A stretch of 52,441 nt of DNA from an uncultured Elusimicrobia bacterium. Lineage in GTDB: Bacteria > Elusimicrobiota > Elusimicrobia > UBA1565 > UBA9628. The stretch's first letter is position 1; each line of letters begins with the position of its first letter. The notes below the pieces were generated by a model. The model saw nothing but the letters and a program-made list of their open reading frames with translations, did not search any database and was not told the origin of the DNA. This document shows, piece by piece, positions 29,566-30,925 of the stretch. The stretch lies in NCBI GenBank assembly GCA_964374095.1, contig CAYJXJ010000006.1:4339-56779 (forward strand), written 5' to 3'. The position numbers and the translations under genes were made by a program.

Positions 29566-30925
29566 GTACCGCGGCGGGGCTCATGTTGGCGACGATGGCC
29601 GCTCCGAACTCCGAAGTCTTGAGCTTCTTGGATCCGGGGAGTTGGCGCTCGAGGTCGTAGGTCACGGTCTTGTCGAGGATGGTCTTCTCGAGCGCGGCCA
29701 CGATCATCGCGGAGGCCTCGTTCCAGCCCAAATGGTCGAGCATCATGACCCCCGACAGGATGACCGAGGAGGGATTCACCTGGTCCTTGCCCGCGTACTT
29801 GGGCGCGGAGCCGTGGGTCGCCTCGAAGACCGCGACCCCTTCGCCGATGTTGGCGCCGGGAGCGATCCCGAGCCCCCCCACCTGGGCCGCGGCCGCGTCG
29901 GAGATGTAGTCGCCGTTCAAGTTGGGAGTGACCAAGACCGAGTACTCCTCCGGGCGCAGGAGCAGCTGCTGGAAGGTCTGGTCGGCGATGCGGTCCTTGA
30001 CGAGGATCTTGCCCGCGGGCATCTTGCCGGCGTGCTTGTCCCAAAGCTCGGCTTCGGTGACGACCTGATCGCGGAACTCCTGCACGGCCACCTCGTAGCC
30101 CCAGTCCCGGAAGGCGCCTTCGGTGAACTTCTGGATGTTGCCCTTGTGCACGATGGTGACCGAGGGCTTCTTGTGGGCCGCGGCGTACTTGAGCGCCATG
30201 CGCATGAGGCGCTTGGTGCCGGTGACCGAGATCGGCTTGATGCCGATGCCGGAGTCGGCCCGGAACTTCTTGCCCATGACCGAGGTCAGGAAGTCGTAGA
30301 CCTTCTTCTGTTCCGGGGTGCCGTTTTCGAACTCGATGCCGGCGTAGACGTCCTCGGTGTTCTCGCGGAAGATCACGATGTCGAGCTTCTCGGGGGCCTT
30401 GACCGGCGAAGGGACTCCCTTGAAGTAGCGGACCGGCCGCACGCAGGCGTAGAGGTCGAGCTTCTGGCGCAGCCCGACGTTGATCGAGCGGAAGCGCCCC
30501 GTGACCCACTCCGAGGAACACTTCACGCATTTCTCGGGCCGCTTGCCGTCCGGGCCGTTCTGCTCCGCCGCGCAGACCATGCAGACGTACTTGAAGCCTC
30601 CGACCGGGGTCGTGAGCGGTCCCTTGATCGAGATGCGGTACTTCTGGAAGGCCGCGACCGTCTCCTCCGGAAGAGGGGTGTCCTTGTCGTAGGCCTTGAG
30701 GGCGTCGAGTCCCGCGTAGACCTTCATCCAGGCGAGCTTGCGGCGTCCTCCGTAGGCTTTCTTCACCCCGGCGTCGAGCACGAGTTGGGCCGCCTTCCAG
30801 ATGTCGGGGCCCGTGCCGTCGCCGGGAAAATAGGGGATGATGGGACGGTCCGGCACTTCCAGGCGCCCGTCCTTGTAATTGATGGGGGATCCGTCGCTAG
30901 GGACTTTGTACTTGGGTTCGCTCAT
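29558..30925 (-). CDS. icd: NADP-dependent isocitrate dehydrogenase (homodimeric type) carrying a 34-aa Cys4 insertion
   Basis: Collinear with E. coli Icd as I remember it ([11 protein letters not shown]...[42 protein letters not shown]). ATG at 30925 (MSEPKYKVP...); an ATG 10 codons upstream (30955) is also possible. 8-nt overlap with the GT2 start. Confidence 0.92.

Follow-up and report, generated by a model that had tools for sequence, protein, structure and literature searches.

The window analysed here is a 52,441-nucleotide stretch of contig CAYJXJ010000006.1, from an uncultured Elusimicrobia bacterium. On its minus strand lies icd, the gene of a type-I homodimeric NADP-dependent isocitrate dehydrogenase (IDH) of 455 amino acids (29558..30925, stop codon included), a call that rests on the start of an identical public protein, on NCBIfam models and on alignments with structures in the PDB. 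What sets this enzyme apart is an insert of 33 residues (residues 111-143; 30497..30595, minus strand), delimited by MAFFT and PDB alignments, which is predicted to fold as a Cys4 zinc ribbon within the Cd or 'phosphorylation' loop. Few metabolic enzymes have been studied as thoroughly as IDH, whose phosphorylation loop serves in textbooks as an example of active-site regulation.

An isocitrate dehydrogenase with an insert in its phosphorylation loop

The open reading frame of icd extends upstream of the annotated start to a TTG codon (29558-30955, minus strand, 465 amino acids), adding 10 codons (30926-30955) to the form that begins at the ATG at 30925, which is the start used by the identical public protein of 455 amino acids (P0001). 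Residues are numbered here according to the 455-residue form. The 40 bases upstream of this ATG contain no clear ribosome-binding site of the AGGAGG type.

Several lines of evidence define the enzyme. A Pfam scan of the protein returns Iso_dh as its sole match, and the protein passes the cut-offs of two curated equivalog models, TIGR00183 (622.4 bits, cut-off 567.3) and NF005425 (593 bits, cut-off 490), while scoring 514 bits, under the 585-bit cut-off, with PRK07362, the model of the cyanobacterial form. Its identity to the IDHs of E. coli and A. fulgidus is 52-54%. The 21 catalytic and NADP-specificity positions that we checked (E. coli numbering) are all kept: the substrate, metal and catalytic residues S113, N115, R119, R129, R153, Y160, K230, D283, D307 and D311; the NADP-specificity residues K344, Y345, V351, Y391, R395 and R292'; and K100, T104, T105, E336 and H339. 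These 21 positions are nearly universal also in the two clades of insert-bearing relatives described below, the ten substrate, metal and catalytic residues being kept in at least 117 of the 119-120 sequences per clade. Given that all 21 positions are conserved, the enzyme is expected to be active as an NADP-dependent IDH. An AlphaFold2 model of the full-length protein, built on an alignment of 77 sequences, reaches a mean predicted local distance difference test (pLDDT) score of 90 and a predicted template modelling score (pTM) of 0.90. Foldseek searches with this model match IDHs only, among them 2iv0 (E 1e-56) and 1p8f (E 1e-53) at a template modelling (TM) score of 0.93-0.94 normalised by target length. 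Across type-I IDH entries TM-scores are 0.89-0.94 normalised by target and 0.81-0.86 normalised by query, a gap that results from the insert.

Two kinds of alignment locate the insert. In a HMMER search of the PDB type-I IDHs align in two pieces, residues 14-120 and 153-459 in the numbering of the longer reading frame, and residues 121-152 are skipped by all 20 type-I IDH entries tabulated, E. coli, A. fulgidus, B. subtilis, A. pernix and S. tokodaii among them. MAFFT alignment with the E. coli and A. fulgidus sequences yields a net insertion of 33 residues (F..G) between PVGG and RFRS, such that the short Gly-rich turn of E. coli IDH (P106-VGGGIR-S113) is replaced by a mini-domain. Its first knuckle is CMVC (Cys115, Cys118; 30572..30583, minus strand) and its second CVKC (Cys133, Cys136; 30518..30529, minus strand). 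The insert ends three residues ahead of Ser147, in the segment Arg144-Phe145-Arg146-Ser147 (30485..30496, minus strand), where Arg144 and Phe145 align to Gly110 and Ile111 of E. coli, and Ser147 is, by alignment with Ser113, the phosphorylatable-type serine at the N-terminus of helix d. A first-pass annotation made from the sequence alone had placed a 34-residue insert with CxxC-X14-CxxC spacing at 30494-30595, immediately N-terminal to the serine that AceK phosphorylates, in an otherwise collinear and intact enzyme that is no pseudogene. Its placement, its spacing and its judgement of the enzyme are borne out by the alignments, the curated cut-offs and the conserved positions, and the E. coli sequence it quoted (PVGG-GI-RS113-LNVALRQ) agrees with that in the PDB; only the length has to be corrected, to 33 residues.

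Is the insert a genuine part of the gene? Logan contigs from three metagenome runs of two studies cover positions 30350-30850 with 0 mismatches and 0 gaps, which disposes of the assembly artefact that had been named as a possible refutation, as the identical segment is present in independently assembled contigs of all three runs. At 0.66, the insert has the same GC content as the window. All four cysteines occur in 239 of 239 database homologues and in 79 of 79 readable genome loci (318 sequences). In the 46 loci with a segment as long as that of the window, each cysteine codon shows 16-34 synonymous and 0 non-synonymous differences from the window, and the codons of Val114, Glu121, Gln122, Pro130, Thr142, Arg144 and Phe145 likewise change only synonymously. 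The insert is under strong purifying selection and goes far beyond what chance would yield. The notion that it is an assembly artefact, a pseudogene feature or neutral junk, for which its unusual length alone speaks, is refuted and retains next to no probability, given the identical assembly in three independent runs, the intact frame and complete catalytic set, the key codons that change only synonymously and the presence of the insert in more than 300 independent assemblies.

Two irregularities of coverage were seen in the same metagenome runs. At 30334-30396 the depth of contigs in the three runs is up to ~18-fold higher, a rise that probably reflects fragments of the IDH genes of other community members at a stretch that encodes a conserved motif. 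One short contig of the run X3 appears to skip 213 bases, from 30382 to 30596. A deletion allele was considered and rejected, since the skip connects two motifs shared by every IDH and is anchored on one side by no more than 26 letters, and since the loss of 71 codons would remove essential residues; the contig is probably a cross-match to other IDH genes of the community.

The insert as a predicted zinc ribbon

Modelled within the full-length protein, a check that the first-pass annotation had proposed, the insert is confidently predicted to form two beta-hairpins that carry the knuckles: blocks of 10 residues over 101-150 have mean pLDDT values of 88-95, and secondary structure assignment by DSSP places predicted strands at 113-115, 121-122 and 141-143, bracketing both knuckles. 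Folded on its own, the segment of the insert (46 residues) has a pLDDT of 71, and the best PDB neighbours of this lone model found by Foldseek are all Cys4 zinc ribbons (TM 0.5-0.64), namely L40e, RPB12/ABC10-alpha, the zinc motif of MCM, PF0610 and BbsA/PhlB, at E-values (0.4-2) that fall short of significance. With the Pfam family Zn_ribbon_PF0610 (PF23470) the match is borderline: a variant of the insert with knuckles 10 residues apart (X10) scores 27.1 bits, just above the cut-off of 26, and the insert of the window 13.4 bits. The spacing between the knuckles among insert-bearing IDHs is 9, 10, 14 or 15 residues. Small Cys4 ribbons such as L40e, RPB12/ABC10-alpha, the C-terminal domain of PF0610 and the N-terminal one of BbsA/PhlB resemble the insert in having knuckles 9-15 residues apart on beta-hairpins, yet they are free-standing or terminal, whereas the ribbon of IDH is internal to a metabolic enzyme. 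Together with the predicted fold, these features make the assignment of the insert as a Cys4 zinc ribbon well supported as a prediction, and the modelled site very probably binds zinc.

A profile search of the PDB with the insert returns look-alikes of C2H2 linkers, PF0610 (E 0.0095) and rubredoxin (E 0.035, covering one knuckle). The stretch 30518-30550, which encodes the second knuckle and its lead-in, resembles the linker and first knuckle of eukaryotic C2H2 fingers (TGEKPYKCPECGKSF), and because of this resemblance C2H2 proteins are the top PDB profile matches and appear also among the matches in the library of representative proteins. From the sequences, we take the likeness as convergence of a knuckle sequence and not as homology.

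The insert is covered by none of the PDB IDH structures, Pfam models or NCBIfam models searched, and in the literature searched we found no mention of a zinc or cysteine feature in IDH. The first-pass annotation was aware of no such module in IDH, and this stands, as no solved structure, curated model or searchable paper describes the insert. Public annotations of the proteins that carry it read 'NADP-dependent isocitrate dehydrogenase' or close variants. Clade-specific insertions near the entrance of the active site are by themselves not foreign to subfamily-I IDHs, as seen in the cyanobacterial form of ~474 amino acids (PRK07362) and in the helical hairpin of Bacillus. Those insertions, unlike the ribbon, sit not in the phosphorylation loop but in the region that resembles the AceK recognition segment (ARS-like, E. 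coli 239-275); the subfamily evidently accommodates additions peculiar to single clades, and no zinc or cysteine motif is mentioned for them in the source (PMC3521221). The phosphorylation loop is among the variable regions listed by a survey of dimeric IDHs, which likewise mentions neither zinc nor cysteine (PMC3521221).

Distribution, origin and genomic surroundings

The insert is far from rare, contrary to what the first-pass annotation had implied, as it is present in at least two large clades with about a dozen phylum-level labels in all. The same annotation had held that its novelty would fall if an alignment revealed the insert to be common and already annotated in a known IDH subfamily; common it proves to be, but an annotated subfamily it is not. 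All 120 of the closest database homologues carry the insert with both CxxC motifs at 67-79% identity and, one partial sequence excepted, are 447-464 amino acids long. A scan with a degenerate pattern, using one genome per GTDB species, finds the insert in 111 genomes. The carriers are almost all metagenome-assembled genomes (MAGs), mostly of uncultured organisms, and the taxon labels are the record titles and source names given by the depositors of the MAGs. Clade A, to which the IDH of the window belongs, bears the labels Elusimicrobia/Elusimicrobiota (the majority), Cloacimonadota, KSB1, Marinimicrobia/Neomarinimicrobiota, Armatimonadota and Caldithrix, and includes, among Elusimicrobiota, Ca. 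Endomicrobium trichonymphae and one complete chromosome (CP096137.1). Its sub-forms have spacers of 14-15 and of 10 residues between the knuckles. In clade B all 120 sequences inspected have the form CxxC-X9-CxxC, reading ...GEETHVCLHCAHQQyhaGkCdKCGkdDGVTxRF(R/Q)SINV, and the labels include Gemmatimonadetes/Gemmatimonadota, Acidobacteriota/Holophagae, Eisenbacteria, Krumholzibacteriia and Myxococcota.

The two clades have in common the pattern hVCLxCAxxQ...KCxKCG...VTxRFRS, and therefore the A and B versions of the insert are homologous. By pairwise identity, A and B seem to be no closer to one another than to E. coli IDH. In a neighbour-joining (NJ) tree of 405 insert-free columns, clades A and B group apart from 11 insertless IDHs with bootstrap values of 67-74. 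The insertless outgroups were obtained by tblastn of PLSDB, and a homologue search with A. fulgidus IDH returned Archaeoglobi only, at 80-97% identity. The tree is compatible with a single origin of the insert though not decisive, and its grouping of A with B speaks mildly against the alternatives, independent gains or an ancestral feature lost many times.

As for the source of the ribbon, a profile of the insert alone (A1), searched against 1.84 billion representative proteins, finds no donor: the end-to-end matches are five IDHs or IDH fragments, and the remaining 132 matches are nearly all to proteins matched in multiple stretches by look-alike segments such as '...RPHKCLxCGKSF', the two inspected being P0123, an array of C2H2 zinc fingers, and P0211, a protein of CPxC repeats. 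This search, which led us to clade B, undercounts insert-bearing IDHs because clustering at 50% identity merges them with insertless ones. In the same library a protein of 110 amino acids that is not an IDH (P0246) contains a stretch, VCERCAGELNEDGQVRPEKCPACSLEIIPPHYRS, similar to the X14 ribbon down to the trailing xYRS (E 6e-4 in a search of 1.8 billion proteins); the resemblance could be due to chance, or the protein could be a free-standing relative of the ribbon.

Two further observations concern individual carriers. The MAG JACQAZ01 (NC_groundwater_929) has two contigs (loci L051 and L055), each with an X10-type insert-bearing IDH, which may represent two paralogues, different strains or a duplicate created by binning. 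The IDH of a contig labelled 'uncultured Verrucomicrobiae' (L067, CAWEXY010000010.1) nests within the Elusimicrobiota/Endomicrobium group with a bootstrap of 81, and its placement could reflect horizontal transfer or a mis-binned contig.

In the window, icd lies in a gene order, GT2-icd-GT1/GT4-SpoIID-TPR (28594-34863), that is kept across many Elusimicrobiota (loci L003, L008, L038, L046, L052, L053, L058, L062, L075 and others), with PlsX, FabG, RNase III and acyl-CoA dehydrogenase further downstream. Given this conserved neighbourhood, the gene is a resident housekeeping icd that is vertically inherited. Beyond Elusimicrobiota no neighbour of icd is conserved. The gene directly upstream of icd in the window encodes a PtsN-like EIIA-2 domain of the phosphotransferase system (PTS; 31028-31495, minus strand); it is specific to the window, with no homologue beside icd in the 80 related loci, and therefore is probably unrelated to the insert. 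The gene neighbourhood offers no functional lead for the insert. Two long open reading frames that overlap icd in other frames, 29534-30982 (plus strand, 482 amino acids) and 29544-30530 (minus strand, 328 amino acids), were rejected as artefacts usual in a genome of 66% GC. Elsewhere in the window Rfam and ARAGORN detect tRNA-Met(CAT) at 11319-11392 (minus strand), tRNA-Lys(CTT) at 37815-37887 (plus strand) and tRNA-Leu(TAG) at 37900-37983 (plus strand), and nothing beyond these three.

A proposed structural staple at the active site and its rivals

The IDH of the window shares with type-I NADP-IDHs (TIGR00183/PRK07006) the fold, the catalytic, metal and NADP residues and the equivalent of Ser113, and differs from them in the 33-residue Cys4 insert and in substitutions at Glu72, Thr75 and Ile111. 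These substitutions accompany the insert. When 239 insert-bearing sequences are set against 11 insertless lineages, Glu72 of E. coli proves to be replaced by Leu in 236 of the 239, while the insertless lineages have Glu or Gln in 11 of 11; Leu takes the place of Thr75 in 92% or more of the sequences of either clade but in no insertless lineage; and Ile111 is replaced by Phe in all 239, corresponding to Phe145 of the window. Residue classes switch at three more positions of the insert-bearing enzymes, 81 being acidic, 223 Pro and 270, within the ARS-like segment, hydrophobic. In the window the first two substitutions are Leu73 and Leu76, at the start of the helix 73-78 (AGLDAL; 30698..30709, minus strand), in place of Glu72 and a residue 75 that is variable in insertless IDHs. 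Position 270 is Met302 (30020..30022, minus strand), hydrophobic in both clades, whereas 10 of the 11 insertless IDHs have a polar or charged residue there. Residues 72-75 open the helix that follows strand B and are adjacent to the loop after strand C; from this topology, a ribbon packed at 72-75 would be expected to go with a newly hydrophobic patch there. Leu73 and Leu76 may thus constitute the docking surface of the ribbon, and Met302 might, more speculatively, touch the partner subunit. The co-occurrence of the three core switches with the insert suggests, on the strength of the alignments, that the ribbon is docked rigidly on the large domain.

What varies between the clades is equally informative. 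Across A and B, conservation is confined to the cysteine ligands and the hydrophobic residues beside them, whereas the loop between the knuckles varies in length (9-15 residues) and in sequence. Conservation restricted to ligands and hydrophobic residues points to a structural core rather than to a conserved binding surface. In addition, the loop that the ribbon occupies is mobile in at least one insertless enzyme: in apo IDH of S. tokodaii residues 101-108 of the equivalent loop are disordered, and this loop joins NADP+ and isocitrate via Thr104/105 (PMC6313988). The pattern of conservation across the clades, the co-variation and the mobility of the loop in insertless IDHs together favour a constitutive role, and we consider it somewhat more probable than not that the enzyme is a functional IDH in which the Cys4-ribbon loop serves as a structural zinc staple or lid and not as a sensor.

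The mechanism could be as follows. One Zn2+ bound by Cys115, Cys118, Cys133 and Cys136 would staple the insert into a rigid knob, which would pack through a conserved hydrophobic core of Val114, Leu/Met116, Trp140/Val141 and Phe145 onto the large domain, its partner there being the Leu73/Leu76 patch, hydrophobic in place of the conserved Glu72. Docking of the knob would fix a loop that is otherwise mobile or disordered in insertless IDHs and would pre-organise Thr105, Thr106, Ser147 and Asn149, residues of this loop whose counterparts in E. coli are in contact with isocitrate and with the nicotinamide ribose. Beyond this, the knob would make the wall of the active-site cleft higher, and on closure of the cleft it may meet the ARS-like hairpin of the partner subunit. 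As a by-product, a kinase of the AceK type could not get at Ser147 as it does in E. coli. The loop and the serine that AceK regulates in E. coli IDH are thus also the site of a lineage-specific elaboration here, the short Gly-rich loop that AceK engages there being in our model a folded knob. AceK itself is confined to Gram-negative bacteria (PMC6313988).

The closest functional analogy of such a ribbon, in a different enzyme family and as an analogy only, may be the LID of adenylate kinase. There too a small zinc-stapled element (CxxC-X16-CxxC in the kinase, CxxC-X9-15-CxxC in IDH) is placed on a mobile flap of the active site, and its presence depends on the lineage. The Cys4-Zn site of the lid (Cys130, 133, 150 and 153) is structural and adds stability, and in evolution the zinc lid alternates with a metal-free one (PMC11526920). 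Zinc and zinc-free lids of adenylate kinase are equal in length, unlike the ribbon of IDH, which is wholly present or wholly absent.

Several points weigh against the structural staple. The co-variation rests on just 11 insertless lineages plus Archaeoglobi, and the support of the NJ tree is moderate. The Foldseek matches of the lone insert are without statistical significance (E 0.4-2), and the insert of the window itself scores 13.4 bits with PF23470, below the cut-off of 26. The habitats of the carriers (groundwater, soil, sediment) show no obvious need for extra stability. Moreover, a Cys4-Zn site may be structural and redox-labile at once, so a structural site might act as a switch as well.

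The foremost alternative is indeed a switch, responsive to redox state or zinc occupancy, that gates IDH at the very loop that E. coli controls by phosphorylation of Ser113. Oxidation or loss of zinc would unfold the ribbon beside Thr105/106 and Ser147 and alter activity, by thiol sensing like that of Hsp33 or RsrA, or by analogy with the thioredoxin-controlled NADP-malate dehydrogenase of chloroplasts. IDH is a main source of NADPH, for which redox feedback is physiologically plausible, and the four cysteines are present in every sequence examined, a few residues from the contacts with substrate and cofactor. Yet the carriers bear labels of anaerobes (Cloacimonadota) as well as of aerobes (Gemmatimonadota, Armatimonadota, Myxococcota), among which we see no ecological pattern; the GT2-icd-GT1-SpoIID synteny shows no linkage of icd to a thioredoxin or redox gene; and the Cys4 zinc ribbons of enzymes mostly have a purely structural role. 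The first-pass annotation had suggested a metal- or redox-sensing module; conservation between the clades of the ribbon core alone, and a co-variation of the enzyme core that suggests fixed docking, speak against it, and we judge the switch unlikely.

Slightly less likely still is a docking platform, in which the ribbon recruits a regulatory protein, a neighbouring enzyme of the tricarboxylic acid (TCA) cycle or nucleic acid to the mouth of the active site. Zinc ribbons often mediate contacts with proteins or nucleic acids, the nearest structural matches of the insert are RPB12, L40e and MCM, and clade A keeps the surface residues Glu121, Arg129-Pro130, Ser138 and Thr142. Clade B, however, is without those residues, the loop varies in length, no gene neighbour is conserved across phyla, and the profile of the insert meets the ribbon end to end only in IDHs or their fragments.

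A rubredoxin-like Fe(Cys)4 centre with a role in electron transfer is very improbable: the CxxC...C(P/V)xCG pattern and the weak one-knuckle profile match recall rubredoxin, but its Pfam family (PF00301) does not match the insert even at E<=10, the knuckles of rubredoxin are roughly 29 residues apart around an aromatic core that is missing here, and there is no flavin for coupling hydride to one-electron transfer. Of the zinc-ribbon/rubredoxin-like label given by the first-pass annotation, the first half is upheld by the Cys4 signature and the confident AlphaFold2 fold, and the second applies only loosely, since a spacing of 9-15 residues fits small zinc ribbons.

What, then, does the ribbon mean for this enzyme? 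It is a common and conserved addition to the structure of a classic enzyme, and one that is apparently undescribed. The insert-bearing set defines a subfamily of IDH fit for a family model and an annotation of its own, and the coupled replacements of Glu72 by Leu, Thr75 by Leu and Ile111 by Phe provide a sequence signature together with a testable model of docking. Enzymes with and without the ribbon constitute a natural system for the effect of loop rigidity on induced fit, parallel to the lids of adenylate kinase. If the ribbon is purely structural, which we think more likely, it is a neat though unsurprising insertion of a zinc ribbon into the loop of an enzyme. Should it respond to redox state or zinc, it would represent a new mode of control of the TCA cycle, and as a switch it would provide an independent, metal-based control of carbon flux and NADPH supply in about a dozen poorly studied phyla.

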